Shown: positions 6,720 through 21,582, numbered from the stretch's first letter. The stretch is DNA of 64,000 nt from Kiritimatiellia bacterium (GCA_018001225.1 JAGNIJ010000017.1:10688-74687); one strand, 5' to 3'. Numbers and translations: made by a program. Notes: generated by a model from the letters alone, not told the origin.

Positions 6720-8360
6720 GTGCCGGGATTGAACCAGTTGCACCGGTGGTCCATTCACCGGCTGCTCCGGTGGCTGCTGCCGCTGGTCATGATGATCGGC
6801 GTGCTGGCCGCGCTCCTCGCGGAGCGGCGGGCGGCGGGCGGCTCGGTCTTCGTGTCCGACCGCGCCTACGCCGACATGGCCGTCGCCCGCACGCTGGTGC
6901 TCGACGGCACCTACGGTCTGCAGCCGGGCGCGCCGTGCCCGGCGGTGCGCGACACGCTCTGGCGGCTGGCCCTCGCGGCCGCGGGCTGGCTCGTCGGCAG
7001 CGTCCGCGTCGCCGCCCTGCTGCTGGCCACGGTCTGCGCGATCGGGACCCTGCTGCTTATTCTCCGGCTGGCCCGGCTGCTGTTCCCGTTCCCGCCGTTC
7101 ATCCTCTATGCCGCCGTGCTGCTGATCGCGGCGCCCGGCCTCCTGACGAACGCGCTGTCCGGGACGTCGCTGCCCCTGGCCACGCTCCTGGCGACGGCGG
7201 CCTGCCTCCTGCACGTCGAGGGCCTGCGCGACCGGCGGCCCGTGCTGTCGTTCGGCTGCGCGCTCCTCGTCGGGTTGCTGGCGTGGATCCGGCTGGAATT
7301 CGTGCTGCTCTGGATCGTCTTCTGGGCGCAGGCGGCGCTGCGGATCACGCCGGACGGGCCCGGGAAGGGCCGGCGCGCCGCGGCGATGGTCAAGGGGCTC
7401 ACCGGGCTGCTGCTGCTGGCGGTGCTGCTGCTGCCGCTCTTTGCCTGGAACCTGCACTGGCTGGGCGTGGCGTGGCCGCAGGCGGCGGGCGCGCCCATGA
7501 CCCTGAACGCATGGGCGGACCGGCCGCTCGGCGAGGCGGCGGAGCGGCAGATCGTCTTTTCGCTCCGCACGCTGCCCGCGCTGTTCGGCTCCGCGTCGGG
7601 CGTTCCGCTGCTGCAGGGGTTCGCGGGTCGGCTGTTCGCCTGGTTCGGCGCGGGCCTGCTGGTCGTGCTGACCCTGCGGCGCGGGGAGGAATACCCGTTC
7701 CTGCTCGTGCCGTTGCTGCTGGTCCTGCTGCCGGCGGGCCTGGCGTTGCTCTATCCTTATATGGGCGCGGATTCGGCGCCCGTCGTCCTGGGCGCCATGG
7801 GGCCGCTGTTCCTGCTGGCCGCCGCGTTCGGAATATTCCGGCTGCCCTTCGCGGTGGAGAACCTCTACCGCAAGTGGAAGGCGGGACTGCCCGAGGCGAC
7901 GGGCTTCGACATATGGTGGACCGCCGTCGGCGGGCTGCTCCTGCTGTGGGCGCTCGTGGGCATGGGGCGGTTCGCGGCCCGGACCGCCGTGGAACGGGCG
8001 GACCGGGTCCAGGCCCGGCAGTTCATCTCCGACACGCTGGTCTCCGGCCGGGTGCGCGCCGGCCGGATTCTCACCGACGCGCCGGGCTGGCTGGCCTTCA
8101 CGCACGCCGTGCCCGTGGCCGATCTCGGCGGCGAGTTCACGCCGGCCCTCCTGCCCGCCCTGCGGCCCGACGGCCGCTGGCGGCGCGAGGGCCTGGCGGA
8201 ATACCTGCTGGAACAGCCGGCCGACCTGCTGATCCTCTGGCGCGGGGGGCAGGAGGAACTCACGGGGTGGTTGGGCGGCGCGGAGTTGAATCCGCCCCCG
8301 CTGCGCCGGCTCCCTCCGCCGGTGGTCCGGCAGCTCGGGCCGCTTCCCGGTGCTTCCTGA
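6720..8360 (+). CDS. Polytopic inner-membrane protein, GT-C-like (ArnT/PMT-type glycosyltransferase fold suspected)
   Basis: GTG start preceded by an AAGGAGA RBS. More than ten hydrophobic helices, then a roughly 150-aa C-terminal soluble domain. No catalytic motif could be verified by eye. Confidence 0.5.
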   Translation: MPGLNQLHRWSIHRLLRWLLPLVMMIGVLAALLAERRAAGGSVFVSDRAYADMAVARTLVLDGTYGLQPGAPCPAVRDTLWRLALAAAGWLVGSVRVAALLLATVCAIGTLLLILRLARLLFPFPPFILYAAVLLIAAPGLLTNALSGTSLPLATLLATAACLLHVEGLRDRRPVLSFGCALLVGLLAWIRLEFVLLWIVFWAQAALRITPDGPGKGRRAAAMVKGLTGLLLLAVLLLPLFAWNLHWLGVAWPQAAGAPMTLNAWADRPLGEAAERQIVFSLRTLPALFGSASGVPLLQGFAGRLFAWFGAGLLVVLTLRRGEEYPFLLVPLLLVLLPAGLALLYPYMGADSAPVVLGAMGPLFLLAAAFGIFRLPFAVENLYRKWKAGLPEATGFDIWWTAVGGLLLLWALVGMGRFAARTAVERADRVQARQFISDTLVSGRVRAGRILTDAPGWLAFTHAVPVADLGGEFTPALLPALRPDGRWRREGLAEYLLEQPADLLILWRGGQEELTGWLGGAELNPPPLRRLPPPVVRQLGPLPGAS

Positions 8361-8772
8361 AAAAATCCTGCAGCAGGGCGCGGCACTCCTCCTCGAGCAC
8401 CCCGCCTTCGTACTCCACGCGGTGATTCAGCCGGGGGTTCTGGAATATCTGGAAGAGCGAGACCGCGCCGCCCCGGGCGGGGTCGGCCACGCCCCACACG
8501 ACCCGCGGGATGCGCGCCAGGACGATCGCCCCCGCGCACATGGGGCAGGGCTCCTTGGTCACGTAGAGGACCGTGCCGGCGAGCCGCCAGTCCTGCAGCG
8601 CGGCGGCCGCCTGCGTGATCGCGAGGATCTCCGCGTGGGCGGTCGGATCCTTGAGCAACTCGACCTGGTTGTGCGCCTGGGCGATCAACTGCCCGTCGCG
8701 CGCGATCACGGCGCCCACGGGCACCTCCTCGAGGTCGGCGGCCCGGCGCGCCTGCCGAAGCGCCGCGCGCAT
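8260..8772 (-). CDS. tadA: tRNA-specific adenosine deaminase
   Basis: HAEILAI and PCPMCAGAI carry the CDA zinc-binding motifs (H-A-E and PC-x2-C). Start ATG at 8770-8772. A low-complexity C-terminal tail overlaps the 3' end of the convergent membrane-protein gene by about 100 nt. Confidence 0.85.
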   Translation of the reverse strand: MRAALRQARRAADLEEVPVGAVIARDGQLIAQAHNQVELLKDPTAHAEILAITQAAAALQDWRLAGTVLYVTKEPCPMCAGAIVLARIPRVVWGVADPARGGAVSLFQIFQNPRLNHRVEYEGGVLEEECRALLQDFFRKHREAARAAGPPAEGAGAAGADSTPRRPTTP

Positions 8773-8884
8773 GAAGCGCTCGTGCGGCGGCGAGGCCGGT
8801 ATCTCGGGTTGTGTTTCGTTCACCGCGCGAATCTGGCTCAACGGCCTTTTACGCTCAAGCCCGAAAGCGGTATTCTTTTCTGCG

Positions 8885-10621
8885 ATGACGCCAGTCCCAA
8901 AGCGGCGCGGTCGGGCGGGGTGCCTTGCGGGGTGGTGTTTCCTGCTGGCCGCCGCGGCGCACGCGGACGATCTTGCGCTGCCGGTGGGGATGCCGATTCC
9001 TCCGCCGGGGCCCGGCGCGGGGCCGTACGCCGCGCCGCCGCTCGCCGAGTTCCAGGCGATGGAACAGGAGGTGCTGGCCGAGGGTCTGCAGGGCCCCGAC
9101 GGGCTGGCCGTGCACCCGTTGACCGGAGAGATTTTCTTTTCCGAGGAGGACGCGGCCCGCGTGCTCGTGCTGCGCGACGGGCAGCCGCTCCGCGTCGTGG
9201 ATCGGGACACGCCGCTCTACCGGCTCCGCGACGGGCGCCGCACGGCCGATCCGACGGAGCCGCTGCGCAACCCCGAGGGCATCGCCTTCTCGCCGTCCGG
9301 CGACCTGTACGTGGCGGAGGATATTTCCGGCGGGCGGCTGCTCCGCTTCCCGGGCCGTCCGGACGGCCGGTACCCGGAGGGCGAGGTGATCGAATTTCCG
9401 GGCGAGTGGCGCGCCTTCGCGTGGGAGGGCGTGGCCGTCGGCCCGCAGAACGACATCCTGCTGGCGGGCTCCGACGTCGAGTTCGCCATGGCCGGCAGCG
9501 GCGCCAAGCCGTTCATGGGCGCCATCCTCTACCGCGACAACGTCGGCCAATGGTGGGTGCCGTACCGCCGGCCGTTCGCGAGTTTCTCCTCCGTGCAGTT
9601 CACGCGGGGCGGGCGGCAGGCCGTCTACACGTGCGAAGTGTCGGGCGAGGTAGGCTGGCTGGACCTGCAGGGGCGCCGGCCCATCGGCGGCTGTAGTGCC
9701 ACGGCGGTCAAGGCCCCGGAAGGCATCGCCGTGCTGCCGGACGGCCGGCTGGCGGTGGCCTCGGAGGCGGGCGCCCTGCTGATCGTGGACCCCGCGGTGG
9801 ACCGCCACACGGTGGCGGCGGAGGGGTTCGGGTCGCTCGAATCGGCGCAGTGGGATCCGCTCGCGGAGCGCCTGCTGCTCACGGAGCAATCGAAGGGCCG
9901 CGTGCTGTCGCTCAAGGCCCGGCCCGACTTCCCGGCGGAGGTGAACCGCATGGACATGGCGGTCTACCATCCGCTGTTCAACCCGCGCCATGTCCCCGAG
10001 TACTGCCCCCCGTACCTGGCCCGCATCCTGGCCCTGGGCGGGCTCGACTACGGCCGGCCGGGCCTGCCGCCGATCTCCTTCCGCGAGTTCACCGAGCGCG
10101 TGCCGCTGATCGCGGCGGACGCGCGCGCGGTGCCCGCGGAAGACCAGGAACCGGTCGAGGATCCGTTGGAGCGCGTGCAGTTCGTCGTCTTCAAGCCGAA
10201 CCAGATGGTCATGGGCGAGACCGGCCCGCAGACGGCGCTGGCGCTGTTCGCCAGCCGTTCGAAATCGGGACGCGTGACGGCCACGAGCGTCCTGCGGGCG
10301 GAGACGATGGGGATCAGCCTGGACCGGCCGAAGACCGAGCGGATCGGCACGGCGGCCCTGGCCGTGCCGATGCCCGGGGGGGTCGGGGTGTCCTCGCTGG
10401 GCATCGCCAACATCAACTTCATGGGGCTGGGCCGGACGCCGGACTACTCGGTGGTGCTCAACCCGGGGCAGCCGTTCGACAGCTATCTCGTCGTATACGA
10501 AACCGGCGGAAGGCGTGTACATTATAGGTTGGAGTTCTCGGAGGAAGGGTCGGGGCTGGATTCGTGGGTCGTGGCGTTCACCGCCTCGCGGCCTGACGAA
10601 TGGCTGTTCCTCGGCCGATAA
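8885..10621 (+). CDS. Secreted beta-propeller (NHL/SMP-30/gluconolactonase-like repeats) protein, paralog 1 of 3
   Basis: Signal peptide MTPVPKRRGRAGCLAGWCFLLAAAAHADD. Repeated GPDGLAVHP...IFFSEE / NPEGIAFSPSGDLYVAE blade motifs. The C-terminal domain shares the motifs RVQFVVFKPNQMVMGETGPQ, FASRSKSGRV and NFMGLGRTPDY with the ORFs at 10622 and 16937. Confidence 0.7.
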   Translation: MTPVPKRRGRAGCLAGWCFLLAAAAHADDLALPVGMPIPPPGPGAGPYAAPPLAEFQAMEQEVLAEGLQGPDGLAVHPLTGEIFFSEEDAARVLVLRDGQPLRVVDRDTPLYRLRDGRRTADPTEPLRNPEGIAFSPSGDLYVAEDISGGRLLRFPGRPDGRYPEGEVIEFPGEWRAFAWEGVAVGPQNDILLAGSDVEFAMAGSGAKPFMGAILYRDNVGQWWVPYRRPFASFSSVQFTRGGRQAVYTCEVSGEVGWLDLQGRRPIGGCSATAVKAPEGIAVLPDGRLAVASEAGALLIVDPAVDRHTVAAEGFGSLESAQWDPLAERLLLTEQSKGRVLSLKARPDFPAEVNRMDMAVYHPLFNPRHVPEYCPPYLARILALGGLDYGRPGLPPISFREFTERVPLIAADARAVPAEDQEPVEDPLERVQFVVFKPNQMVMGETGPQTALALFASRSKSGRVTATSVLRAETMGISLDRPKTERIGTAALAVPMPGGVGVSSLGIANINFMGLGRTPDYSVVLNPGQPFDSYLVVYETGGRRVHYRLEFSEEGSGLDSWVVAFTASRPDEWLFLGR

Positions 10622-12568
10622 ATGACCATGCATGAGCCGAGTCCAAGTCGGAAGGCAGCCCGGCGCCGGTGGGGCGTGGGCCTGCTCTGGGCCGCGGCCG
10701 GGCTGGCGCTGCCGCCGGGACCCGCGCCCGCGCTGCGCCTGGAGACGTCCCGCGAGCTGCTCGCGGTCGAGGTCGTCGCCGGCGGGTTGAAGGAACCCGG
10801 CGGCATGGCGACGGATCCCCGGCACGGCGAAGTCTACGTGGCCGAGCGGGGCGCCCACCGCGTATCCCTGATCCGCGACAAGCAGGTCCTCCCCGTGCTG
10901 GAGGGGGCGTTCGCCCTCGCCGAGAAAAAGCGCGGCCCGCGAAAAGCCTCCACGCTGGACGCCCCGTCCGCCATCGCCTTCGACGCCGACGGCCGCCTGT
11001 ACGTGGTCGAAAGCCACGGCCCGGCGCGGCTGCTGAAGTTCGAGCCGCTCTACGAAGGCTTGCGCCTGGCCTCGGTGATCGAGACCCCGTGGGTGGAAAC
11101 GCCGCAGGTCTGCACGGGCGTCGCCGCGGACCGCCGCGGCCGGCTGTTCGTCACCACGCAGAACCGCGAGCGCCGCGTGGTCACGGTCTTCGGCGCCGTG
11201 CTGATGCGGGAGGCGGACGGCAACTGGAAGCTGGTGGACCACGGCCCGTTCTCGGATTTCTCCAACGCCGCGGTGGACCCGGAGGGGCGCACCCTGGTCG
11301 TGGGCGAGCGCCGGGGCGCGGACTTGAGCTGGTACGACGCGCGCCGCCAGGTCGAGATCCGCAGCCTGGAGAAAATGGAAGGGCTGCGCCACCTGGCCCT
11401 GCTGCCGGACGGCACCACGGTCGCCAGCCTGAACCGCGCCGACGGCACCTGGAGCCTGGCGGAGGTGGACGGCCTCTCGGGCATCGTCTGGGAGTGGGTC
11501 GGCGGACTCGGGGAGATCGGCGGCTTGTGCGCCCACCCGGACACCGGGGATCTCTACGTCACGCTGGCGGGCGAGGGCAAGGTCATGCGGGTGCACCGGC
11601 TGGAGCCGCGGAAGGAGACGCCGGCGCCGCAGAGCCGGATCGGCCGCATGATGCGGGTGTTCGAGCTGGAAAACGCGATCCCGCCGCCCGAGTGGCCGGA
11701 GTTCTTCCGCACGTTCATCGAACAGTTGGGGCTGGTCCGGCCCGTCAACGAGCACACGGCGCGCCGGCCCGGCGAGCCCCGGCCGGAGGGCATCCCGCTG
11801 ACGATCGCGGAGTTCGCCTCCAGCGTGCCCGTGGTCGCCGCCAAGGTCCGGGCGCGCCTCGTCGGCCCGGAGGATCAGGAGGCGGACCCCGTCGAGGAGT
11901 TGAGCTTCCTCCTGTTCCATCCCAACCGGAGCATGCTGACGCGGCAGACCATGGCGCCCAGCTTGAGCCTGTTCTGGGCGCGGCACCGGAGCGGCCGGGT
12001 CGTCCGCAGCCAGTTCATGCCGAACCGGGCGGGCCGCCCGTTGAGCGAAGACATCCCGTGGGACGAGATGCCCGAAATGCTGGTCGCGTTCCCCGCCGGC
12101 TTCTACGCGCCCGAGACCGGCGTGTCCGAGAACAGCCTGCTGCGCGTCTACTTCCTGGGCATGGGCATGGGGCCGGACTACTGGATCGACCTCGACCGCG
12201 AGGACATGGGCCGGAGCCGCATGGTGGTCGAGAAGCAGGGCGGCCGGCGCGTGGACTATATCCTCGAGCCCTACCTCGAGACGCCCTCCGCCGGCGGGCA
12301 GACCGTCCTCGTCGCCGGCCTCAAGGAAGTGGAGATGGGCTGGCACGACCTGGGCCAGGACCCGATCCCGTGGAAGATTGTTCCCCCGGACGCGCGCCCC
12401 GTCCAGACCCGGCACCTGATGAACCTGGACCAGGTCCGCGCCCGGCCGATGCCCCGGGAACCCGCCGTGGCGGACGTGTACCTGCCCCAGCCGACCTTGC
12501 AGGGTACGGACCTCTCCCGGCGCATCGTCCTGCGCGCCGCCTCCCGCTGGGCCACGAACCCGTTTTAA
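10622..12568 (+). CDS. Secreted beta-propeller protein, paralog 2 of 3
   Basis: Its ATG is immediately after the TAA of paralog 1. Signal peptide GVGLLWAAAGLALPP. Blade motifs LKEPGGMATDPRHGEVYVAERGAHRVSLI. C-terminal motifs LSFLLFHPNRSMLTRQTMAPSLSLFWARHRSGRV and YFLGMGMGPDYW. Confidence 0.7.
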   Translation: MTMHEPSPSRKAARRRWGVGLLWAAAGLALPPGPAPALRLETSRELLAVEVVAGGLKEPGGMATDPRHGEVYVAERGAHRVSLIRDKQVLPVLEGAFALAEKKRGPRKASTLDAPSAIAFDADGRLYVVESHGPARLLKFEPLYEGLRLASVIETPWVETPQVCTGVAADRRGRLFVTTQNRERRVVTVFGAVLMREADGNWKLVDHGPFSDFSNAAVDPEGRTLVVGERRGADLSWYDARRQVEIRSLEKMEGLRHLALLPDGTTVASLNRADGTWSLAEVDGLSGIVWEWVGGLGEIGGLCAHPDTGDLYVTLAGEGKVMRVHRLEPRKETPAPQSRIGRMMRVFELENAIPPPEWPEFFRTFIEQLGLVRPVNEHTARRPGEPRPEGIPLTIAEFASSVPVVAAKVRARLVGPEDQEADPVEELSFLLFHPNRSMLTRQTMAPSLSLFWARHRSGRVVRSQFMPNRAGRPLSEDIPWDEMPEMLVAFPAGFYAPETGVSENSLLRVYFLGMGMGPDYWIDLDREDMGRSRMVVEKQGGRRVDYILEPYLETPSAGGQTVLVAGLKEVEMGWHDLGQDPIPWKIVPPDARPVQTRHLMNLDQVRARPMPREPAVADVYLPQPTLQGTDLSRRIVLRAASRWATNPF

Positions 12569-12698
12569 TTCCGGCGGACCCCGGCGGGCTTAGCCGGCAG
12601 GGGGCGATCTCCCTCTTTGGACCCCGGCGGGCTTGTCCCGCCGGTGAACGAGGTCAGGGAGCCCGCGCCGCGCGCGGTGTTCTCCGCCTTCCCTGCGC

Positions 12699-12741
12699 CG
12701 GAAAAACAAAAACGCCGGGATCCGCGTGAGCGAATCCCGGC
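12699..12741 (-). terminator. Rho-independent terminator for the PPIase gene
   Basis: On the minus strand: hairpin GCCGGGAT...ATCCCGGC (8-bp stem) followed by GUUUUUGUUUUUCC, 17 nt after the stop at 12758. Confidence 0.5.
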
Positions 12742-12757
12742 GCCGTATGCAAACCGT

Positions 12758-13984
12758 CTACTCTTCAGCCGGGGCCGCCGGCGCTTCCTCGGGGGCCGGC
12801 TCGGCCGCCGCCTCGGGTTCCGCCGGAGCGGTCTCGGGCTCGGCCGTCTCTTCCACCGGGGGACGCATCATCGGCATCGACATCGGCGGCGGCATGCTCG
12901 CCGCGCCGAGGAACTGGATGTCGGCCTTGGCCTTGATCCCGTCGATGTACTCGCGGACGGCCAGCTGGCGCTTCTGCGCCTTCATGCCGCGGACCAGGTC
13001 GGGACGCACCTCGTCCAGTGTCATCGCGTGGGCCTCGTCGTGCTTGGTGACCTTGATGACGTGGTAGCCGAACCGGGTTTCCACCACCGGCCCGATCTCG
13101 TCCACCTTCTGGGCGAACGCCGCATCCTCGAAGGGCTTGACCATGTCGCCCCGGCGGAAGGGCGGCAGCTCGCCGCCGCGCGCCTTGCTGGGGCAATCGG
13201 AGTGCTCGGTCGCCAGCGCCGCGAAGTCGGCGCCTTCGATCAGCTTCGCGCGGAGTTCCTCCGCCTTGGCCTGCGCCGCCTTCTTCTGCTCCTCCGTCGC
13301 GTCCGGCTCCACGGCGATCAGGATATGGCTCGCGGCCACGGTCTCCGGCATGTCCATGCGGTCCTTGTGGTCCTCATAGAACTTGGCGACTTCCTCATCG
13401 GTCGGCTCGGCGATCTGCTTTTCGACCTCGGACTCCACGAGCTTGTTGATCCGCAGCTCCGTGGCGAATTCCTTGTCGAACTCCGCCTTGGAAATGCCCT
13501 GCTTGTCCAGGGCGTCTTCCAGCGTCATGCCGGGCGGGAAGCGGCCCGTGAACTCGGCGCGCGCCTTGTCGATCTCCTCGGGCGTGAGTTCCACCTTCTG
13601 CCGGTCCGCCTCGCGGAGCAGCAGGCGCTTGACGATCAGCGCCTCGGCGGCCTGCCGGGTGATCTGGCCCCGCATTTGGGCCAGTTGCTCCGGCGGGACC
13701 TGGCGCTGCGCGGCGATCTTCATGGCGCGGTCCACCTCGGCGCGGACTTCGCCCCAGGTGAGCTGGTCGCCGTCGATCGAGGCGATCGCCTCGTCGTCCG
13801 CGGGTTCCGGGGCCGCGCTGCGTACGGGCTGGGAAAACAGGTCGCCCGGCTGCGACAGATCCACTTCGGCGTCGGCCGCCGGCTCTTCCTTCTGCCCGCA
13901 GCCCGTGAGCGGGAAGGCGACGAGGACCGCCGCCGTCAGTATCCACCGGGCCGTTCTCCACGCCGTGTCGCTATGCTTCTTCAT
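12758..13984 (-). CDS. Peptidyl-prolyl cis-trans isomerase, SurA/PrsA-like parvulin lipoprotein
   Basis: Lipobox AFPLTGCGQ. A SurA-N-like chaperone region is followed by a PpiC domain (SHILIAVEPDAT...GGELPPFRRGDMVKPFEDAAF...GYHVIKV). An acidic Pro/Glu/Ala C-terminal tail follows. Confidence 0.8.
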   Translation of the reverse strand: MKKHSDTAWRTARWILTAAVLVAFPLTGCGQKEEPAADAEVDLSQPGDLFSQPVRSAAPEPADDEAIASIDGDQLTWGEVRAEVDRAMKIAAQRQVPPEQLAQMRGQITRQAAEALIVKRLLLREADRQKVELTPEEIDKARAEFTGRFPPGMTLEDALDKQGISKAEFDKEFATELRINKLVESEVEKQIAEPTDEEVAKFYEDHKDRMDMPETVAASHILIAVEPDATEEQKKAAQAKAEELRAKLIEGADFAALATEHSDCPSKARGGELPPFRRGDMVKPFEDAAFAQKVDEIGPVVETRFGYHVIKVTKHDEAHAMTLDEVRPDLVRGMKAQKRQLAVREYIDGIKAKADIQFLGAASMPPPMSMPMMRPPVEETAEPETAPAEPEAAAEPAPEEAPAAPAEE

Positions 13985-14152
13985 CCGCGTGCCATCCTTT
14001 CCTTGGTGTCCTTCCGACAGTTCGAGACGGAATTCGTTCAAAACGCGGCATACTCTGGACTCCCGGTCTCCCGGTGTCAAACACACATTAGAGCACTTGA
14101 ACCTTGGGATTTTTTTTGGATTTCGATATTCGAAAATCGAGTTTGGACTCCT

Positions 14153-15136
14153 TTATGGCACGGGCCAGCGGAACGCGCCGGTGCGCAGGAAGCGCGCGAC
14201 CTCGGCGGCCGCCTGTTCGGCCTTGCGCCGGACGGCCTCCGCGGTGTTGAAGGCGTTGTGCGGGGTGAGCAGGACGTTCGGCCGGCGGGCCAGCCGGCGC
14301 AGGGCCCGGGCGGCGCGGCCGGCGCGGCCGGTCCGGAACGCGACGGCCACCTCGCTTTCGTCCTCGAACACGTCCAGGCCCGCCCCGGCGAGCCGGCCGG
14401 TGTCCAGCGCCCAGGCGAGGTCCGCCGTGGGGGCCAGTTCGCCGCGCGCGATGTTCACGAAGAGGGCCCCGGGCCGGACTCGCCGCCAGGCGGCGCGGTT
14501 GAAGTAGCCCGCGTTCCGTGCCGTCAGGTTCATCGCGCAGACGATCACGTCCGCCTCCGCGAGCCCGCGGGCGGGCGGGACGTAGTCGATCTCCGGATGG
14601 CGCCGCGCGAGGTCCACGCCCCGCACGCGCAGGCCGAGGCCGCGCCCGACCCGCGCGATCTCGCGGCCGATGTTCCCGACGCCCACGACGGTCAGCGTCC
14701 GGCCGAGGCATTCGCCGCCGGTCAGCCCGTCGCGGTCGAAGGCGGCGAACTGCCGGAGCTGGAGGGGGAGGCGGCGGAGGAGCGCCAGCCAGAGCATCGC
14801 CGCGTGTTCCGCGACGGCGCGGGCGCAGTAGCGGGGGAGGTAGCCGCAGGGCAGGGGCCGGCCCGCCCGTTCGCGGTAGCGCCGGAGATGGTCGTAGCCG
14901 GTGCTGCGCGTGAGCACGCCGGAGAGCCGGGGCGCCCAGGCCGGCGGGAGGATCGACTGGGTGCGGATGCTGACCAGGGCGGCGGGGGGCTCCGCGTCGC
15001 CGCGCTCCTGGATCGTGCGGCCGGTCAGCACGGCCCGCACCCCCCGGGGCAGGAGCGCCCGCAGCGCGGCCGCCTCCTCCGCAAAGGCCTCGTAGAACAC
15101 CACGTCGGCCGGCCGCTGCCGCGCTTTTTTCATCAC
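14153..15136 (-). CDS. D-isomer-specific 2-hydroxyacid dehydrogenase (NAD-binding)
   Basis: Rossmann motif TLTVVGVGNIGREIARVG. The catalytic region ARGELAPTADL...LDVFEDE...LLTPHNAFNT is typical of D-2-HDH (LdhA/GyaR family). Confidence 0.85.
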   Translation of the reverse strand: MMKKARQRPADVVFYEAFAEEAAALRALLPRGVRAVLTGRTIQERGDAEPPAALVSIRTQSILPPAWAPRLSGVLTRSTGYDHLRRYRERAGRPLPCGYLPRYCARAVAEHAAMLWLALLRRLPLQLRQFAAFDRDGLTGGECLGRTLTVVGVGNIGREIARVGRGLGLRVRGVDLARRHPEIDYVPPARGLAEADVIVCAMNLTARNAGYFNRAAWRRVRPGALFVNIARGELAPTADLAWALDTGRLAGAGLDVFEDESEVAVAFRTGRAGRAARALRRLARRPNVLLTPHNAFNTAEAVRRKAEQAAAEVARFLRTGAFRWPVP

Positions 15137-15194
15137 CGTTTTTTTCGTCCTGCATCTTTAGCGCGCGTGACTTTCCTGTACGATCCGGTGAAAT

Positions 15195-15241
15195 GTGACA
15201 CGGGCGTCTCGCCCGTGCTTTTCACGGCCGGGACGGCCGTG
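15195..15241 (+). repeat. GC-rich dyad element, family copy A: GTGA-CACGGGCG-TCTC-GCCCGTG-CTTTT-CACGGCCG-GGAC-GGCCGTG
   Basis: Two 8-bp-stem perfect inverted repeats separated by CTTTT. Same core and orientation as 5569-5615. It lies about 180 nt upstream of the motA/exbB-like gene. Confidence 0.4.
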
Positions 15242-15304
15242 CCACACTCCAGATCCAATCCTTCGCTAAAGATACAGTTTTCCGCCCCCGGGCCATTTCG
15301 CCCA

Positions 15305-15340
15305 TTGACTTGAATAGCCGCTTGGAGGATGATAGACAAT
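15305..15340 (+). promoter_or_regulatory. Weak candidate promoter upstream of the stator-like operon
   Basis: TTGACT at 15305-15310 with a poor -10 (GATGAT) after a 17-nt spacer. It is included only because it is the single -35-like hexamer in the 280-nt divergent intergenic region. Confidence 0.2.
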
Positions 15341-15417
15341 CTAATTAGTCGGGTTCCGCGTGGACGCGCGGAGCCCCCGAAAAGAGCCGAGAAACTTCTC
15401 TCCAGTCGAGGTGCGCA

Positions 15418-16926
15418 ATGGCGGAAGAAACGGAAGTCGGCGTAACCGAGTTGACCGAGCCCGAACTCCAGGTGGCCAAGGGCGGGCGCCCCGGAACCGA
15501 CGCCAACGTGGTGATCCAGGTGCTGGTGGGGCTCATCGGCACCGTCGCGGTGGCGTTTGCCGTGTTCCCCCTGAAGGGCCGGAGCGCGGCGCTGGATTAC
15601 ATCTACCAGCTCATCAACCAGCGCGGCCCCATTCAGTACATCGAGCTGTTCATGGGCTTCATGGTGGCGGCCCAGATCTTCCTGAAGTCGCGCATCCTGA
15701 AAAAGCAGACGCGCACCTTCATTGAAAGCCCCGTGGACTCCAGCATCGACCTCAACGACGACGTGCACGTGCAGGAGCTCCGCAAGCGCATCGTCGCCAA
15801 CCCGCTCTTCACCGAGAGCATCGCGTTGAGCCGCATGGACCGCATCCTGGCCCTGTGGCTGGCGACCAAGGACGTTGGCCGTATCTCCGGCTGGGCGGCC
15901 TCGGAGTCCGACCGCGACACGTCGTCCTCCGACTCCTCCTACGCCCTCTCGCGCGTGCTGATCTGGGCCATTCCCATCCTGGGGTTCATCGGGACGGTGC
16001 AGGGCCTCGGGTCCGCCGTGTCCGGGTTCGCGGACTTTCTGAAGAGCAGCGCCGAATTGAGCGCCATCAAGGGCGCCATCGCGAACGTGACCATCGGCCT
16101 CGGCGTCGCCTTCGACACCACCTTCCTCGCCCTGATCCTGGTGACCCTGCTGATGTTCCCGCTCTCCTCGCTGCAGCGCCGCGAGGAAAACCTCTTCGTC
16201 GAAATCGACATCTACCTGGACGAGGTGCTCATCTCGCGCCTGCCCTCGCCCGAGAGCAAGCCGATCGTGATCGAGAACCTCGAGGACTCCATCGAGGCCG
16301 CCTTCCGCCGGTACATCCCCGACCCGGACCGCTACGACGAGGTGTTCACCCGGTCCATCGAGAAGGCCGCCGCCAGCGTGGAGCAGAAGTTCGACGGCTT
16401 GAGCCAGAACTACGTCTCCACGCTGCGGGGCTTGAGCGAGCACTTGTCCAGCAGCTTCGGCACCGTGGGCGACGCGATGGAGACCGCCCTGCGCAAGGTC
16501 ACCGCGGACCTGCGCGCCCAGGAGGACGCCGTCCTCGAAAGCCGCCGGAAGCTGGCGGAGGAGGAGGCGGGCCGGATGAAGGGCGTGTTCGCCGGCGTCA
16601 ACGACGCCGTGGTCAAGGCGGCGGGCGAGTACACGCGCAGCGCGGACGCGCTCACGAGCGCCACGCGCGAGAGCTCCGAGCAATCCGTCCAGGCCGCGCG
16701 GGAGCTGGTCACGCGCATGAGCGAGGTCCGGCAGCTGGCCTCGGGCATCCAGGACCTTTTCAAGATCCAGCAGGCCATGGAGAAGAGCCTCGCGGGGATC
16801 GCCGCCTCGGCGGAGTTCCGCACGGCGCTCGAGGATCTGCGCAAGCACCTGACCACGACCGACGCGCTGGTCAGCCGCTTGAGCCGTCCGCGCGTGATCA
16901 CGCTGCGCGAGGAGACCGGCGCGTGA
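15418..16926 (+). CDS. MotA/TolQ/ExbB-family proton-channel (stator) protein with a roughly 260-aa C-terminal coiled-coil extension
   Basis: GAGGTG RBS 6 nt upstream. TM1 VVIQVLVGLIGTVAVAFAVF, a large cytoplasmic loop, then the family signature PILGFIGTVQGLGSAVSGF and IANVTIGLGVAFDTTFLALILVTLLMFPL. Residues about 245-502 are predicted helical and Glu/Ala/Arg-rich with no TM. Confidence 0.75.
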   Translation: MAEETEVGVTELTEPELQVAKGGRPGTDANVVIQVLVGLIGTVAVAFAVFPLKGRSAALDYIYQLINQRGPIQYIELFMGFMVAAQIFLKSRILKKQTRTFIESPVDSSIDLNDDVHVQELRKRIVANPLFTESIALSRMDRILALWLATKDVGRISGWAASESDRDTSSSDSSYALSRVLIWAIPILGFIGTVQGLGSAVSGFADFLKSSAELSAIKGAIANVTIGLGVAFDTTFLALILVTLLMFPLSSLQRREENLFVEIDIYLDEVLISRLPSPESKPIVIENLEDSIEAAFRRYIPDPDRYDEVFTRSIEKAAASVEQKFDGLSQNYVSTLRGLSEHLSSSFGTVGDAMETALRKVTADLRAQEDAVLESRRKLAEEEAGRMKGVFAGVNDAVVKAAGEYTRSADALTSATRESSEQSVQAARELVTRMSEVRQLASGIQDLFKIQQAMEKSLAGIAASAEFRTALEDLRKHLTTTDALVSRLSRPRVITLREETGA

Positions 16927-16936
16927 GGCCGCGGCG

Positions 16937-18964
16937 ATGTCGCTAGGCCTTACAGCGCGCGGGCGGCGGATCGCGGCGGCCCTGGCTGCGGCGGGCTGCC
17001 TCTGGCCGCGGGTCGGCGAAGCGCAGGTGGTGGACACCGCCAAGAGCGACTTCAACATGCAGGTCAGGGCCCGCGGCCTCAAGAACCCGGAGGGCGTGGC
17101 CCTGCATCCCTCGAGCCGCGACATCTACGTGGCCGAGCGGGGCGCCAACCGCGTCGTCGTCCTGCGCAACAACACCCCGGCCCCGGCCATCGAGTCCGGC
17201 TGGACGGTGGAGACCAATTATCCCAAGTGGGTCATCAGCAAGAACCGCCCGCGGGAGGCGGTCGAGCGGGGGCAGTTGCAAAGCCCCGGGGCCCTCTCGT
17301 TTTCCACCAACGGCCACCTGTTCGTGGTCGAACAGGTGCCGTGGGGCCGGGTCCTCGAGTTCATTCCCGACGACGCGGGCCAATACAAGAAGGCCCAGGT
17401 CGTCGGCGTGCCGTGGCTGGAGAAGCCGTACGTGTGGGAGGATCTCAAGGCCGCGGACGACGGGCGCCTGTTCGTGGCGGGAAACGACAGCGCGGCGCGC
17501 GGCGGGCTGACCTTCGGCGTGGTGCTGGTCCGGGATCTCGAGGGCGACTGGTGGGTGGTGGATTACGGGCCGTTCATGAATTTCAGCGGCGTGAGCCTCT
17601 CCCGGAAGCAGGACGTGGTCGTCATCGGCGAGCGGCCCGAGGGCGGCATCGTGTGGTGGGACGCCGTCCGGCACCTGCCCATCGGCACCGCGGGCAACCT
17701 GACCCCGCAGTCCGAGATCGAGGCCGTGGGACTGCTCGGCAACGGGGCCATCGTGCTCGCGCAGCGCGCCAGCACGAAGGGCAAGGACGCCCGGCTGCTC
17801 TCCCTCGACCCGACCAGCGGCGCCCTGAAGCAGCTGGTCGAAGGGCTCGATTCCCTCGGCGCGATCTGCCTCGTGCCGGAGACCGGGAACCTGCTCGTGA
17901 CCGATCCCCAGGCCGGCCTCCTGGCCGAGTGCTCGCCTAAGACGCCCCTCCCGCCGGGCGAGTACCTGATCCAGCGCAGCCTCGAGGGCTACGAAATGGC
18001 GACGGGCTTCACGCCCCGGTCGTCGCCGCAGTTCCTCCGCAGCTTCTTCAGCCAGGCCGGCGTCGGCCTGGACCAGCAGACCACCAAGGGTTCGGCCGGC
18101 GGGGAGGACGAGGGCGAGGCCGGCGGCGGCATGGCCGTCTCGGTGTCCCTGCGCGACTTCGCGAGCAAGCTCCCGCTGGTCGCCGGCAAGGTGAAGGTGA
18201 TGCAGGCCGAGAACCTGGAGGGCGAGGACAAGGACCCGGTCACGGAGGTCAACTTCGTGCTGCTCTTCCCCGGCCGCATGGTGCTCGGCGGGGAATACGC
18301 GACGCCCAGCATGAGCTACTTCGCCGCCACGCGCAAGAGCGGCAAGGTCGAGCAGACCCGCGAACTGCTCTCGGGCATGGCGATGGACCAGCGGGTGCAG
18401 GGCGAGGGCTGGACGCGCCTCGGGAAGGGCGGGGCCATCAGCGTGCCGCTGGTCACGTGCAGCATGCAGAAGCGCGACGACGGCATGGAACTGAACCTCG
18501 TGTTCCTCGGCATGGGCCTCTACGACGATTACTACCTTTCGATGATGAGCGGCGTGGACGAGGAGGTCGGCACCCTGGTGGTGAACGGGATCAAGGGCGA
18601 CCGGCGGGTCTACAAGACCTCCTTCCGCGAGGTCGTCAACGACGGGTCGGAGGTCAAGAACCTGGTTGTCGCGGGGTTCGATCCGAAGGAGAAGATCGGC
18701 GTGGGGTGGCTGAACATCGGCCGGTGGCCGGTGGGGTCCTATGTCGGCCTGGGCGAGATGCAGTCCGGGGCGTTCCAGGGGGTCAGCGAGGACTTGGCGC
18801 GGCTGATAGAGCGCAAGCAGATGGAGTGGCGCGCGACGGAAGTCGGCGCCGCGACGGAAGGCGGCGAGGTTCCGGCCGGCGAACCCGGGGCGGAGCCGGT
18901 CCCCGCGCCGGTCGGGGGCGGGGAAGCCGGTGCGCCGGTCCCGGCGCCCGCGGCGACGCCGTGA
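16937..18964 (+). CDS. Secreted beta-propeller protein, paralog 3 of 3, embedded in the stator operon
   Basis: Starts 10 nt after the stator gene stop. Signal peptide RRIAAALAAAGCLWP. Blade motifs LKNPEGVALHPSSRDIYVAERGANRVVVL. C-terminal motifs EVNFVLLFPGRMVLGGEYATPSMSYFAATRKSGKV and VFLGMGLYDDYY match paralogs 1 and 2. Confidence 0.7.
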   Translation: MSLGLTARGRRIAAALAAAGCLWPRVGEAQVVDTAKSDFNMQVRARGLKNPEGVALHPSSRDIYVAERGANRVVVLRNNTPAPAIESGWTVETNYPKWVISKNRPREAVERGQLQSPGALSFSTNGHLFVVEQVPWGRVLEFIPDDAGQYKKAQVVGVPWLEKPYVWEDLKAADDGRLFVAGNDSAARGGLTFGVVLVRDLEGDWWVVDYGPFMNFSGVSLSRKQDVVVIGERPEGGIVWWDAVRHLPIGTAGNLTPQSEIEAVGLLGNGAIVLAQRASTKGKDARLLSLDPTSGALKQLVEGLDSLGAICLVPETGNLLVTDPQAGLLAECSPKTPLPPGEYLIQRSLEGYEMATGFTPRSSPQFLRSFFSQAGVGLDQQTTKGSAGGEDEGEAGGGMAVSVSLRDFASKLPLVAGKVKVMQAENLEGEDKDPVTEVNFVLLFPGRMVLGGEYATPSMSYFAATRKSGKVEQTRELLSGMAMDQRVQGEGWTRLGKGGAISVPLVTCSMQKRDDGMELNLVFLGMGLYDDYYLSMMSGVDEEVGTLVVNGIKGDRRVYKTSFREVVNDGSEVKNLVVAGFDPKEKIGVGWLNIGRWPVGSYVGLGEMQSGAFQGVSEDLARLIERKQMEWRATEVGAATEGGEVPAGEPGAEPVPAPVGGGEAGAPVPAPAATP

Positions 18965-18994
18965 CGACGCAGAGAAACCAAGGGAGCATGGGAA

Positions 18995-19681
18995 ATGGGT
19001 AGGAGATCCAGAGGCGCGGCCATGGACTTCTCGTCGTTCATGTGCGTGATTCTCATGCTCATCGGCGTGCTCATGATCCTGCTCATCAGCAACGTGCTCA
19101 CGATCATCAGCAACCCCGAAAACGTGCAGATCAGCGCCGTGATCAAGGGCGCGCTCTACGCCGAGAAAACCGAGGCGGATGAGGACCAGGGCCTGATGCT
19201 GGTGCCGAAGTTCGGCAACAAGTTCAAGGACCCCGTGTACGTGGACGTCTACGGCGACCAGATCGTCATCTATCCCGAGGGGAAGATCGTCCCGGTCGTC
19301 GACCTGGAGCGCTCCGGGAACGCCTTCGAACGCATGCTGAACACCGTGGCCGCGAAAAAGGACGAGCGCTACATCGTGCTGCTCGCCCGGCCCCGTTCGG
19401 CGCGCGTCCTGCGCCGGCTGCGCACCGCCATCCACGACCGCGAGGTCGACCTGGGATTCGAGCTGTACGAGGAGGGCCGCACCGTCGAGGTGGCGGCCGG
19501 CCAGGCGGCGTCGGGCGAGGCGGAAGGGGAAACCCCGCCGGAAGGCGAACCGGGCGGGGAACCCGTCGCACCCTCCGCGGAAGGCGCGGAACCGGGCGCG
19601 GCGCCGGAGGAGGGCGGAACGCCGCCGGCCGAACCGCCGGCCGAACCGGCGGCCGCCGCGCCCGTGGCACCCCAGGAGTAA
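18995..19681 (+). CDS. ExbD/TolR-family protein with a Pro/Glu/Ala-rich C-terminal extension
   Basis: AGGGAG RBS at 18981-18986. N-terminal TM FMCVILMLIGVLMILLI. The ExbD-like periplasmic fold pattern is DPVYVDVYGDQIVIYPEGKIVPVVDLE...YIVLLARPRSARVLRRL...DREVDLGFELYEE. A 55-aa tail ETPPEGEPGGEPVAPSAEGAEPGAAPEEGGTPPAEPPAEPAAAAPVAP follows. Confidence 0.65.
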   Translation: MGRRSRGAAMDFSSFMCVILMLIGVLMILLISNVLTIISNPENVQISAVIKGALYAEKTEADEDQGLMLVPKFGNKFKDPVYVDVYGDQIVIYPEGKIVPVVDLERSGNAFERMLNTVAAKKDERYIVLLARPRSARVLRRLRTAIHDREVDLGFELYEEGRTVEVAAGQAASGEAEGETPPEGEPGGEPVAPSAEGAEPGAAPEEGGTPPAEPPAEPAAAAPVAPQE

Positions 19682-19687
19682 CCGGCC

Positions 19688-20320
19688 ATGGCGAAAAAAG
19701 AACGAGGCAACTCCGTCAACCTGGACTCGTTCCTGGATATCATGACGTGCATGCTGGGCATCATCATCCTGATGATTCTCCTGACCGGCATCGACGCCTC
19801 GCAGATCAAGGTCCTCGTCCCCACGCCCATGGAGCAGCCCACGGACAAGCGGCCGATCTTCATCGAGTGCCGGAACAACGAGCTCTTTCTCGTGCCGATC
19901 GAGGACATCACGCGCATGGTCTACGACGAGATGGGCGCGCTGGCCGAGAAGGCGAAGGGCGACCAGTCGGCGTTCGCCCAGTTGCTCGAGACGGCGACGG
20001 TCAAGACCGAGGCGCACCAGGTGGACCTGGCCTTCGCCCTGATGAGCCAGTTCGCGCTCACGTCGCTGCCCGGGGTCAGCGGGTACAGGCTGGAATCCGT
20101 CTCCCGCGAGACCGCGCAGGACTGGTTCGGCAAGATCCTGAACGAGGTGCACAAGGACGAGGAGATGATCACCTTCCTCGTGCGCGACGACAGCTACGTC
20201 GTCTTCAAGAAGGCCCGCGCCCTCGCCTGGCTGGCCAATGTCCAGGTCTCGTGCGAACTGCTCGACGTCAACGAGCCCATCAAGTTCGGCCTCGGCGGCA
20301 CCCGCTCCATGGCGCAGTAG
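19688..20320 (+). CDS. Second ExbD/TolR-family protein
   Basis: CAGGAGT RBS. ExbD-type N-terminus VNLDSFLDIMTCMLGIIILMILL (cytoplasmic stretch then TM). A diverged periplasmic domain ITFLVRDDSYVVFKKARALAWLANVQVSCELL follows. Confidence 0.6.
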   Translation: MAKKERGNSVNLDSFLDIMTCMLGIIILMILLTGIDASQIKVLVPTPMEQPTDKRPIFIECRNNELFLVPIEDITRMVYDEMGALAEKAKGDQSAFAQLLETATVKTEAHQVDLAFALMSQFALTSLPGVSGYRLESVSRETAQDWFGKILNEVHKDEEMITFLVRDDSYVVFKKARALAWLANVQVSCELLDVNEPIKFGLGGTRSMAQ

Positions 20321-20333
20321 GGGTGGGCAAGGC

Positions 20334-20645
20334 ATGTCAGACCAGGGTTGGAATGAACTGGTGAGCCGGATCGTGGGAGCGGTACACCCCTTGCAGATCA
20401 TTCTTTTCGGATCCTCCGCTCGGGAAGGCGGGGGCGTCAGGGGCGACGTGGATGTACTCGTGGTCATGCCCGATGGTACGCCACGGCGCGCGACAGCGCA
20501 GAAACTCCACCTGGAAATGTTCGGACTGCCCTTCGCCGTGGATATCCTCGTCGCGACACCGTCCGATCTGCAGAGGCATCGTACGAATATCGGGTTGATC
20601 TACAAAACCATCCTGGAAGAGGGGAAACAACTCTATGCCGCCTGA
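20334..20645 (+). CDS. Minimal nucleotidyltransferase (MNT/MntA-type antitoxin)
   Basis: The GSSAREGGGVRGDVDVLVV motif (G-S-x9-13-D-x-D) of the Pol-beta superfamily. 103 aa. Its stop overlaps the downstream HEPN start. Confidence 0.75.
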   Translation: MSDQGWNELVSRIVGAVHPLQIILFGSSAREGGGVRGDVDVLVVMPDGTPRRATAQKLHLEMFGLPFAVDILVATPSDLQRHRTNIGLIYKTILEEGKQLYAA

Positions 20646-20820
20646 TGTCCCCGTTCCGGGTTCCGCGGCAGACTGGCTTCGGCATGCGAAAGCGGACCTG
20701 GCCTTGGCCCGCGTTCCGCTTCCGGAGGAAGGGCTGTATCTTTCCCTGTGTTTTCATGCTCATCAAGCGGCTAAAAAGGCGATCAAGGCCGTACTGAATT
20801 TCTTCCCGAACACTGCCTGA
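20635..20820 (+). pseudogene. HEPN-domain toxin gene (COG2250-type), 3'-truncated
   Basis: Its ATG overlaps the MNT stop by 11 nt. The N-terminal helix-1/2 pattern is AADWLRHAKADLALARV...LSLCFHAHQAAKKAIKAVL. The ORF stops after 61 aa and the downstream R-x4-6-H catalytic motif is absent. A palindromic element begins about 38 nt later. Confidence 0.55.
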
Positions 20821-20857
20821 AACTTCAATGCCGGCTTGGTGATTATGAGGGGTGAGT

Positions 20858-20930
20858 GTCATCCCGAACGAAGTGAGGGATCTCCGACTTGTTGGGCAGC
20901 GCAGAGATCCCTCGCTGCGCTCGGGATGAC
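20858..20930. repeat. Imperfect palindromic MITE/REP-like element
   Basis: GTCATCCCGAACGAAGTGAGGGATCTC, 19 nt, GAGATCCCTCGCTGCGCTCGGGATGAC: 27-nt inverted arms at about 85% identity. Both-strand translations give the CHPERSEGS-type peptides that often appear as spurious hypothetical ORFs. Confidence 0.5.
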
Positions 20931-21071
20931 ATGCTCCACTTTCTATGTCCGGCAAGCACCGCACGGGCCTTGCGCAGTCATCAAAGTTTCATCCGTGAGC
21001 GTTCCGGCCGCCGCCGGAGGCTTTGCTGATCTGAGACACCATCCGTGAAAAGTGCGTGTCACATATTTGTT

Positions 21072-21169
21072 TTCAACGTCCAACGCCCAACGTCCAACAC
21101 CCAACTTCCAAGGCGTGGAACGGCTTCCATTGGACGTTGGAAGTTGGATGTTGGTTGTTGGACGTTGAG
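21072..21169. repeat. Long hairpin element made of inverted arrays of heptamers: (CCAACNN)5, 18-nt spacer, (NNGTTGG)5
   Basis: Left arm TTCAACGTCCAACGCCCAACGTCCAACACCCAACTTCCAA, right arm TTGGACGTTGGAAGTTGGATGTTGGTTGTTGGACGTTGAG. A related copy occurs at 36569-36638. Confidence 0.55.
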
Positions 21170-21212
21170 GTCTCATTGCTGTTTCCATCCGGCCCCTGGG
21201 GCCGGCGGCCCA

Positions 21213-21247
21213 ACCGAACACTGAACACTGAACACTGAACACTGAAC
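21213..21247 (+). repeat. Tandem heptanucleotide repeat (CYGAACA)x5
   Basis: CCGAACA CTGAACA CTGAACA CTGAACA CTGAACA read directly. It lies in the 5' leader/coding start of the YkgJ-like gene. Confidence 0.6.
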
Positions 21248-21582
21248 ACCCCCAATCCTTCTCCTGCCTCCACTGCGGCGCCTGTTGCCGCTGGCCGGGG
21301 CACGTGCTGCTGACGGACGCGGATGTGGCGCAACTGGCGTCCCATCTGGGCATTCCCGAGCGGGATTTCATCGACCGGCACACCGTGCTGGCCTCCAACC
21401 GGGGCCAGTTGAGCCTGGCCGAGACGCCGGAGGGCGCCTGCGTGTTCCTGGAAAACGACGCCTGCCGGGTGTACGTTTCCCGCCCGGCGCAGTGCCGGGA
21501 ATTCCCGGCCGGCTGGTCCGTTCCGGGGTGCCCGGCGGTCGGGGGCCGGGCCGCCGGAGCCCTGGCGCGGCGCCCGGTGTAA
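21232..21582 (+). pseudogene. YkgJ-family (CxxCxxCC zinc/iron-chelating domain) gene lacking an in-frame canonical start in its present repeat configuration
   Basis: The in-frame peptide TLNTEHPQSFSCLHCGACCRWPGHVLLTDADVAQLASHLGIPERDF...CREF carries the CxxCxxCC hallmark upstream of the first possible start (GTG 21304). The frame opens immediately after a TGA inside the heptamer tract. Confidence 0.45.

Follow-up and report, generated by a model that had tools for sequence, protein, structure and literature searches.

A tailed ExbB-like stator, two unlike ExbD-like proteins, and an embedded propeller protein: a candidate ion-driven envelope motor in Kiritimatiellia, with relatives across the PVC superphylum

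The stretch of DNA analyzed here, hereafter the window, is 64,000 nucleotides of one strand with a G+C content of approximately 69%, and its subject is a four-gene operon encoding a candidate ion-driven envelope motor, together with two related genes upstream (both clusters lie within 8,885–20,320). The nearest relatives of the encoded proteins are found in Kiritimatiellia metagenome-assembled genomes (MAGs). The operon contains, on the plus strand, genes for a stator A subunit with the MotA/TolQ/ExbB fold (15418–16926; 502 aa; 93% identical to a protein labeled "MAG TPA Kiritimatiellia"), a secreted two-domain propeller protein designated PropC (16937–18964; 675 aa; 100% identical to NCBI KA248_07400 from a Kiritimatiellae MAG, annotated as "hypothetical protein"), and two ExbD-like single-pass proteins, B1 (18995–19681; 228 aa) and B2 (19688–20320; 210 aa), separated by gaps of 10, 30, and 6 nt. 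Two divergent paralogs of PropC are encoded upstream on the same strand, namely PropA (8885–10621, within an open reading frame (ORF) spanning 8573–10621; 578 aa) and PropB (10622–12568; 648 aa), with the propB ATG coming directly after the propA stop codon. All six ORFs show coding-type G+C values at third codon positions (0.89–0.95), and the ORFs, the gaps of 10 and 30 nt, and the gapless propA/propB junction were found where a preliminary description of this DNA had placed them. A promoter-like site (TTGACT-17-GATGAT; 15305–15333, plus strand), which is a match to the sigma-70-like consensus only, lies 5′ of the stator gene and is the sole such match in 8300–21800, where 0.6 would be expected by chance; no plus-strand terminator-like sites were found within 15418–20320. 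With one promoter-like site, no internal terminator-like site, and short gaps, 15418–20320 is predicted to be a single operon.

The A subunit scores 18.1 bits against the Pfam family MotA_ExbB (PF01618), under the cutoff of 22.9, and its assignment to the family thus relies on its homologs and on a fold search. PF01618 is present in most of the 120 homologs listed, the NCBI name is MotA/TolQ/ExbB family, and distant homologs in the PVC (Planctomycetes–Verrucomicrobia–Chlamydiae) superphylum reach 34–40 bits; the match is sub-cutoff for the window protein but is carried by its relatives, and the failure to match MotA_ExbB profiles, named in the preliminary description as a ground for refutation, is not considered to apply. 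In an AlphaFold2 model built from a 26-sequence alignment, the membrane domain has a predicted local distance difference test (pLDDT) score of approximately 80, and the top 50 matches in a Foldseek search against the PDB are all ExbB, TolQ, MotA, or PomA chains, with ExbB first. The membrane domain accordingly has the fold of MotA/TolQ/ExbB A subunits. The 26 aligned sequences, which are 52–93% identical to the window protein and have a mean column identity of 67%, share invariant residues T193, T225, and T234/T235 in the motifs GFIGT193V and VT225xGLGVAFDTT; matched by eye, these motifs are what we take to be the pore-lining Thr residues of TolQ/ExbB (T145 and T178 in TolQ).

Hydropathy analysis of the stator gave four hydrophobic helices (approximately 25–59, 71–94, 173–203, and 214–254). 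Homologs from Planctomycetota, Akkermansia, and other Verrucomicrobiota (L056, L069, L077, and L087) have a CxxC…CxxC zinc ribbon at the very N-terminus, then a low-complexity linker of approximately 50 aa and the first transmembrane (TM) helix, and a ribbon in this place speaks for four TM helices with the N-terminus in the cytoplasm; Kiritimatiellia stators are without the ribbon and linker, and a three-TM, ExbB-like topology may be the alternative. The most conserved stretch of the protein, residues 256–330 (PIVIENLEDSIEAAFRRYIPDPDRYDEVFTRSIEKAA), lies just past the last TM helix. Residues 303–463 are predicted to form a single helix of variable sequence with a hydrophobic periodicity of 3.5–3.67 residues, and the C-terminal tip, SKPRVITLREE, is conserved. 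The model confidence of this tail is low, as expected for a monomer model; with the predicted helix in view, its earlier characterization as a cytoplasmic coiled-coil tail of approximately 260 aa was a fair one. The best sequence-profile match of the stator is PADLOC ZorA3 (2e-8), and the tail weakly matches ZorA1 and ZorA2.

B1 and B2 are paralogous. Comparison by hhalign of the two family alignments, built with orthologs from 22 other loci (23 orthologs each), gave a probability of 98.2% and an E-value of 4.5e-14, and pairwise BLAST of B1 against B2 gave no match. In B2, Asp17 within the TM helix (SFLDIMTC) is invariant throughout the family alignment, so that the essential Asp of a single N-in TM helix (D25 in ExbD, D23 in TolR) is present in B2; at the same position, B1 has Cys, Asn, Ala, Pro, or Ser across its orthologs, and Cys18 in the window protein. 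By profile search, B2 matches the NCBIfam ExbD model (E 8e-4) and, under its cutoff of 25.4 bits, Pfam ExbD (PF02472; 14.3 bits, E 0.045); among its 23 orthologs, seven match ExbD (best E 0.0055) and four match MotB_plug, none at cutoff. All displayed ExbD and MotB alignments of B2 put Asp17 on ExbD D25, including an hhalign comparison with an approximate E. coli ExbD query sequence (D17 on D25, E 0.0028), and a phmmer search with the same approximate query against 7,156 locus ORFs returned solely B2 orthologs (E 1.7e-4). A further short hhalign match in the periplasmic region of B1/B2 aligns KPVYLSV with DPVYVDV, again with an approximate E. coli query; this match and the order of strands and helices, read by eye, are what point to a possible ExbD/TolR-type periplasmic fold. 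B1 itself has no Pfam or PDB sequence match, and none of its 23 orthologs matches ExbD; a profile search of the PDB with the B1/B2 families gave one match, to the TM/plug region of MotB (E 0.1), and one of 5.8e9 proteins returned only family members, which are without Pfam domains. From these comparisons, B2 probably works like ExbD/TolR, and B1 probably does so as well, by virtue of its paralogy to B2. Of the two ExbD/TolR-family genes described previously, the single-pass, ExbD-like character holds, but the resemblance is weak by sequence and B1 is without the Asp.

The periplasmic domain of B1 comprises approximately 110 aa, and that of B2 contains an insertion of approximately 50 aa relative to it. 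An invariant motif in B1, SN..TIISNPEN, lies at the periplasmic end of the TM helix. The Pro/Ala/Glu tail of B1 (residues 167–228) had been interpreted as a TonB/TolA-like tail grafted onto an ExbD-like protein; because the tail is missing in most orthologs and has no terminal globular domain, this interpretation was rejected.

The AlphaFold2 model of PropC (mean pLDDT 75, with the propeller above 90) contains, in order, a signal peptide, a six-bladed NHL/SGL propeller (39–334), two linker helices with a disordered stretch, a beta-rich domain (approximately 414–595), a conserved amphipathic helix (618–638), and a disordered Pro/Ala/Glu tail; the match to Pfam NHL has an E-value of 3.9e-6. The beta-rich domain found 65 cluster matches among 1.84e9 proteins, nearly all at the same protein position, and appears to be exclusive to this family of propeller proteins. 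Five residues of the propeller protein, E67, E132, R138, R199, and D242, are invariant across deep paralogs. Assignment of PropC as a lipoprotein was rejected, the Cys of the signal peptide not being conserved. Many of the propeller proteins embedded in such operons have Arg-Arg before the hydrophobic core of the signal peptide, with export by the twin-arginine translocation pathway being possible, and they nearly always terminate in Pro after a Pro/Ala/Glu-rich tail (loci L027–L048; 18950–18964 in the window).

As described previously, the three propeller proteins of the window are paralogous, with PropA (BLASTP E 1e-46, 28% identity) and PropB (E 8e-65, 29% identity) both matching PropC over both domains. 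PropA is without the C-terminal helix and tail of PropC. PropB ends in the motif LSRRIVLRAASRWATNPF, common to P0136–P0138, which are encoded far from any stator gene; the general form of this ending, L(S/T)..(I/V)L.RA...W....F-COOH (12515–12568 in propB), is missing in PropA and in the embedded orthologs and could be a sorting or docking signal. In a rough neighbor-joining tree, propA and propB lie on long branches outside the clade of embedded PropC proteins, and they occur only in the clade of the window (L005, L006, and L009). Moreover, no motor gene lies within 8 kb of the stand-alone relatives P0136 and P0138. Because propA and propB are clade-restricted and their relatives lie this far from motor genes, they are not part of the conserved system: their membership of the machine is doubtful, they are not required parts of it, and the triplication of the propeller, previously taken as a feature of the system, must be set aside. 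The preliminary description had regarded propellers apart from motor genes, combined with a TonB elsewhere, as telling against a common machine; half of this combination was found, in that stand-alone paralogs exist.

Conservation of the operon was surveyed by a stator scan of one genome per GTDB species, which found at least 575 genomes with a relative and from which 79 loci were kept, and gene order was determined by tblastn with the window proteins in 51 Kiritimatiellia loci. The order stator–PropC–B1–B2 is kept in 26 of the 51, at stator identities of 42–93%, so that synteny is conserved among these relatives and the propeller gene, placed between the stator and ExbD-like genes by the preliminary description, is part of a conserved operon there. 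Median gaps in the 20 four-gene loci measured are 25, −4, and 3 nt, and the negative value reflects an overlap (ATGA) of the PropC stop and B1 start codons in most deep-clade loci. In a rough neighbor-joining tree of the stators, one deep clade is entirely four-gene and the other mostly three-gene (stator–B1–B2), with the window clade and L024, which are four-gene, nested within the latter. The embedded PropC orthologs form one clade, and because their tree mirrors that of the stators, the embedded propeller was most simply ancestral to the class Kiritimatiellia and then lost or moved several times. The earlier impression, from two relatives, that the propeller was a recent lineage-specific insertion was overturned by the 79-locus scan.

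Outside Kiritimatiellia, stator homologs in Planctomycetota, Verrucomicrobiales, Akkermansia, and Lentisphaerae are 28–38% identical to the window protein, and most of these loci have ORFs matching the B1/B2 profiles after the stator gene, with two (approximately 265 and 370 aa) in about half and one in several more. The conserved core, as judged from gene content, thus consists of A, B1, and B2 across the PVC superphylum.

A YkgJ-like gene with a CxxCxxCC motif (21235–21582, plus strand; Pfam CxxCxxCC 4.4e-6) accompanies many of the operons. It occurs 5–215 nt past B2 in 21 of the 26 four-gene loci vs. 5 of the 25 three-gene loci, which suggests that stator–PropC–B1–B2–ykgJ was an ancestral five-gene unit, these counts not being phylogenetically independent. 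The protein encoded in the window shares 74% identity with the L005 ortholog and has the CLHCGACC motif in common with it, and its gene is displaced from B2 by an insertion of approximately 900 bp. No ATG, GTG, or TTG precedes the Cys motif, and the frame opens at 21232, within approximately five tandem ACTGAAC heptamers; either the start codon has been lost or a non-canonical one is used, and the heptamer repeat may be prone to slippage. The possibility that the gene is 5′-truncated was rejected after comparison with the L005 ortholog and inspection of the heptamers and start codons.

The two clusters of the window are split, as described previously, by minus-strand genes for a SurA-like periplasmic peptidyl-prolyl isomerase/chaperone (12758–14086; Pfam Rotamase 4e-28, SurA_N_3 1e-11) and a divergently transcribed D-2-hydroxyacid dehydrogenase (14153–15136; Pfam 2-Hacid_dh_C 7e-34). 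In the window-side Kiritimatiellia clade, the dehydrogenase gene is found at this same place, and it probably does not contribute to the function of the system; the conserved SurA-like neighbor hints at a link to envelope biogenesis. Stable synteny with surA and the dehydrogenase gene, together with the high column identity of the stator, gives the motor a housekeeping-like behavior. Between B2 and the YkgJ-like gene, a patch of lower G+C (0.62; 20320–21300) contains an ORF (to 20645) for an MNT nucleotidyltransferase, a truncated HEPN gene (20635–20820; profile positions 2–43 of 117), and two inverted repeats (20848–20940 and 21073–21168), and looks like a decayed toxin–antitoxin or mobile insertion.

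Further downstream on the plus strand, 22552–34308 encodes a 3918-aa protein with subtilase S8, bacterial TSP3 repeat, PEGA, Kelch propeller, and MAM-like domains, and L001 and L005 likewise have a giant gene of this kind after the motor operon. What looks like a cluster of the pilus or secretion type occupies 40234–47261, where a PilM-like gene comes first, then two to three genes without annotation, and then one for an 1124-aa secretin that has TPR and STN regions; in L003, type II secretion system (T2SS) genes come directly after the motor operon, and lpxA/fabZ are also neighbors. A 725-aa membrane protein (48109–50286, plus strand) has a Dpy19-type (C-mannosyltransferase-like) Pfam match (1.2e-11), a family unusual in bacteria. 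Finally, 52371–54137 (plus strand), which comes after rho with no motor gene beside it, encodes a 588-aa protein with an N-terminal TM helix, a Pro/Ala-rich linker of approximately 200 aa, and a VWA domain at the C-terminus. Scans of the window for Rfam families and tRNAs were negative.

The interpretation preferred here is that the operon encodes a PVC motor of the 5:2 type, driven by the proton motive force (PMF), with a heterodimeric axle, with PropC as its partner in Kiritimatiellia, and probably with a task in the envelope. Taken as a whole, this interpretation falls slightly short of an even chance, and its parts differ in strength: a 5:2-type motor with a heterodimeric axle is very likely as the product of the four genes, the case for PropC as a physical partner of the motor is evenly balanced, and Tol-like envelope maintenance as the job of the motor is a tentative suggestion. 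In such a motor, five A subunits would surround a B1–B2 heterodimer; protons would bind Asp17 of B2 and pass the Thr ring, and the A ring would be turned with respect to the axle. B1 and B2, whose periplasmic domains are ExbD-like and include no peptidoglycan-binding OmpA domain, would use these domains to engage PropC, a presumably soluble periplasmic protein whose propeller or beta-rich domain could bind an envelope component. By this route the motor would, like Tol-Pal, convey work to the outer envelope, and it would do so in a lineage for which an absence of recognizable TolA or TonB has been reported. The cytoplasmic tail of approximately 250 aa, with its conserved base and tip, might link rotation to a cytoplasmic partner or, alternatively, act as a sensor or brake, as the ZorA tail does.

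Several observations weigh against this interpretation. In 25 of the 51 Kiritimatiellia loci, the embedded propeller is missing, with 4–55 nt at its position, and no propeller gene was found in the non-Kiritimatiellia PVC stator loci; the motor therefore should work without PropC, and PropC is best regarded, from its distribution, as a Kiritimatiellia accessory rather than a core part. The earlier view of the propeller as part of the machine thus stands insofar as the gene is embedded in 26 loci, and fails insofar as the protein is not essential to the gene set. The best structural matches of PropC include lactonases and sugar dehydrogenases, and its propeller resembles lactonase/NHL enzymes and binding domains rather than TolB. 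Neither B1 nor B2 reaches the curated cutoff of PF02472. The 5:2 stoichiometry, the B1–B2 heterodimer, and the docking of PropC are all inferred, and the envelope role is argued from neighboring genes (surA; lpxA/fabZ and T2SS genes in L003) and from analogy. In addition, the analysis covered 64 kb, and other Ton or Tol genes may lie elsewhere in the genome.

Much of the same evidence bears on the possibility that the motor is real and PropC a passenger, that is, a periplasmic NHL/SGL-type enzyme (e.g., a lactonase-like hydrolase) or a binding protein that shares the transcript, with the motor performing the task that it has in PVC bacteria without PropC. Such a passenger would account for the absences just described, for the occurrence of paralogs (propA, propB, P0136, and P0138) outside motor operons, and for the resemblance to lactonases and sugar dehydrogenases, and the five residues invariant in deep paralogs could mark an active site. 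However, the gene is located between A and B1 rather than at the operon end, a position kept over the whole range of stator identities in the four-gene loci, and its stop codon overlaps the B1 start in most deep-clade loci. Furthermore, the embedded orthologs group in a clade of their own and have conserved a C-terminal helix that PropA is without, and the C-terminal domain appears to occur in no other protein family. A passenger role is judged unlikely.

The preferred interpretation, in which the motor acts through PropC, must also be set against a Ton-like energizer, in which an A5–B1B2 complex powers unlinked TonB/TolA-like transducers for uptake or another outer-membrane task and PropC is accessory. 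A scan of approximately 35 window ORFs gave no match to Pfam families for TonB, TolA, Pal, OmpA/MotB, or flagellar proteins, which agrees with the preliminary description; the latter, however, missed a TonB/TolA-like candidate in the vWA protein at 52371–54137. The succession of TM helix, Pro/Ala-rich linker, and VWA domain in this protein corresponds to the TM-helix/Pro-rich/vWA architecture for which a force-transducing role has been proposed in PVC bacteria, Kiritimatiellota among them, and tonB genes are often unlinked from exbBD (PMC12204202). Nevertheless, its TM helix has solely the S-x3-H of the SHLS motif, tblastn found no vWA homolog within 10 kb of the stator in any of 89 loci, and the published vWA clusters bring their own TPR, tolQ-like, and two tolR-like genes. 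There is no TonB-dependent receptor in the window, and none was found in the cultured relative K. glycovorans (PMC5148204). A Ton-like energizer is thus distinctly unlikely, and a tie between the window vWA protein and the motor by gene neighborhood was rejected, given that no locus searched has a vWA homolog; a metagenome scan with this protein found only two close relatives.

A motor for surface motility or secretion that drives the giant subtilase/Kelch protein, the PilM–secretin cluster, or a T2SS, as GldLM and AglRQS do in their own settings, appears improbable. AglRQS has the same composition of one TolQ-like and two TolR-like subunits, the operon has a surface protein of the 3918-aa type encoded after it in the window, L001, and L005 and T2SS genes after it in L003, and the PilM–secretin cluster lies in the window; however, these giant-protein, T2SS, and pilus-like neighbors are not conserved across loci, no Glt or Gld homologs were seen, and K. 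glycovorans is a non-motile coccus (PMC5148204). Least credible of all is a Zorya-like anti-phage or envelope-sensing system in which a signal from the periplasm would reach cytoplasmic effectors by way of the long tail: ZorA3 is the best profile match of the A subunit, the tail weakly matches ZorA1 and ZorA2, and such a long helical tail is not known from any stator other than ZorA, but this tail is roughly half as long as that of ZorA, neither a ZorB-type peptidoglycan-binding domain nor a ZorC/D/E-like gene is present, PADLOC at E ≤ 0.001 matches the A subunit and none of PropC, B1, and B2, no conserved nuclease or helicase neighbor was found at the motor loci, and the locus is syntenic and strongly conserved across the class and beyond, unlike patchy defense islands.

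A bolder form of the preferred interpretation would extend it to an uncharacterized, PVC-wide class of 5:2 ion motors with a ZorA-like tail and an obligate one-Asp heterodimer axle, which in Kiritimatiellia drives a dedicated propeller protein, forms an ancestral five-gene unit together with the YkgJ-like protein, and replaces Tol-Pal/Ton where TolA/TonB are missing; in this full form, the proposal is somewhat unlikely. The center of interest is the PVC-wide, unannotated motor family with its tail and asymmetric axle, and the triplicated propeller and the "TonB-like tail" are embellishments of particular lineages. Outer-membrane energization and division in PVC bacteria are poorly understood, and TolA/TonB can be missing; a machine of this kind, if real, would be genetically testable and would serve the study of PVC envelope biology, since relatives of the motor core occur in tractable organisms, namely Akkermansia and Planctomycetes such as Gimesia.

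Comparison with known systems places the operon close to several of them and within none. With Tol-Pal it shares single-pass B subunits in which the TM helix bears an Asp and an OmpA domain is lacking, a gene within the operon for a six-bladed propeller protein of the periplasm, and the proximity of envelope-biogenesis genes. It differs in being without TolA and Pal, in having two unlike B subunits of which one has the Asp, in the order A–propeller–B1–B2, and in the cytoplasmic tail of the A subunit. A TolA-type gene (SHLS TM helix, domains II/III) was found neither in the operon nor in the 51 Kiritimatiellia loci, and PropC does not have the TolB architecture, which combines an N-terminal alpha/beta domain with a C-terminal propeller and goes together with a Pal lipoprotein. 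With the Ton system, in which exbB-exbD-exbD operons are common, it shares ExbB as the top Foldseek match of the A subunit and, for B2, ExbD and MotB_plug as the only profile signals; it differs in that the window has neither TonB nor a TonB-dependent receptor, both B subunits stay under the Pfam ExbD cutoff, B1 is without the Asp, the A subunit is long-tailed, and a propeller gene is embedded. Zorya ZorA–ZorB resembles it in the fold and long helical cytoplasmic tail of the A subunit and in the ZorA3 profile match, and is set apart from it by the peptidoglycan-binding domain, the effector genes, and the tail length discussed above, as well as by the housekeeping-like conservation and putative heterodimeric axle seen here. 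Flagellar MotAB differs in its OmpA-type MotB, and the window holds no flagellar gene. Myxococcus AglRQS has the same one TolQ-like and two TolR-like subunits; no Glt/Agl partners were seen here, and neither tail nor propeller is known in AglRQS. Judged by the defining parts of each system, therefore, the operon is not Tol-Pal, Ton, Zorya, or a flagellar stator.

The closest published counterparts were described in 2025 in Molecular Biology and Evolution, where PVC clusters of genes for a TPR protein, a TolQ-like protein, two heterologous TolR-like proteins, and a vWA "force transducer" were reported, along with a Kiritimatiellota species, Tichowtungia, without discernible TolA/TonB (PMC12204202). 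These clusters resemble the present operon in belonging to the same superphylum, Kiritimatiellota included, in having one A-type gene followed by two unlike B-type genes, and in being likewise proposed as new PMF-driven envelope machines without a known phenotype; they differ in that here a propeller protein takes the partner's place and no TPR or vWA gene lies within 10 kb of any locus, and tailed A subunits and propeller partners go unmentioned in the paper. Consistent with the earlier statement that no described system matches, no published description of a tailed-stator/propeller/B1/B2 module was found, in a literature search that covered subscription journals incompletely, and no well-characterized system with the same gene set came to light; public annotation recognizes the A subunit only, with PropC and the NCBI-named B2 homologs entered as "hypothetical protein." The known classes of 5:2 motors comprise flagellar MotAB, Ton, Tol, GldLM, Zorya, and AglRQS, and the operon, if the preferred interpretation is correct, would represent a further class, unusual in a conserved cytoplasmic tail outside a defense context, in an axle of two unlike subunits with the proton-binding Asp on one only, and, in one bacterial class, in a built-in periplasmic propeller partner.

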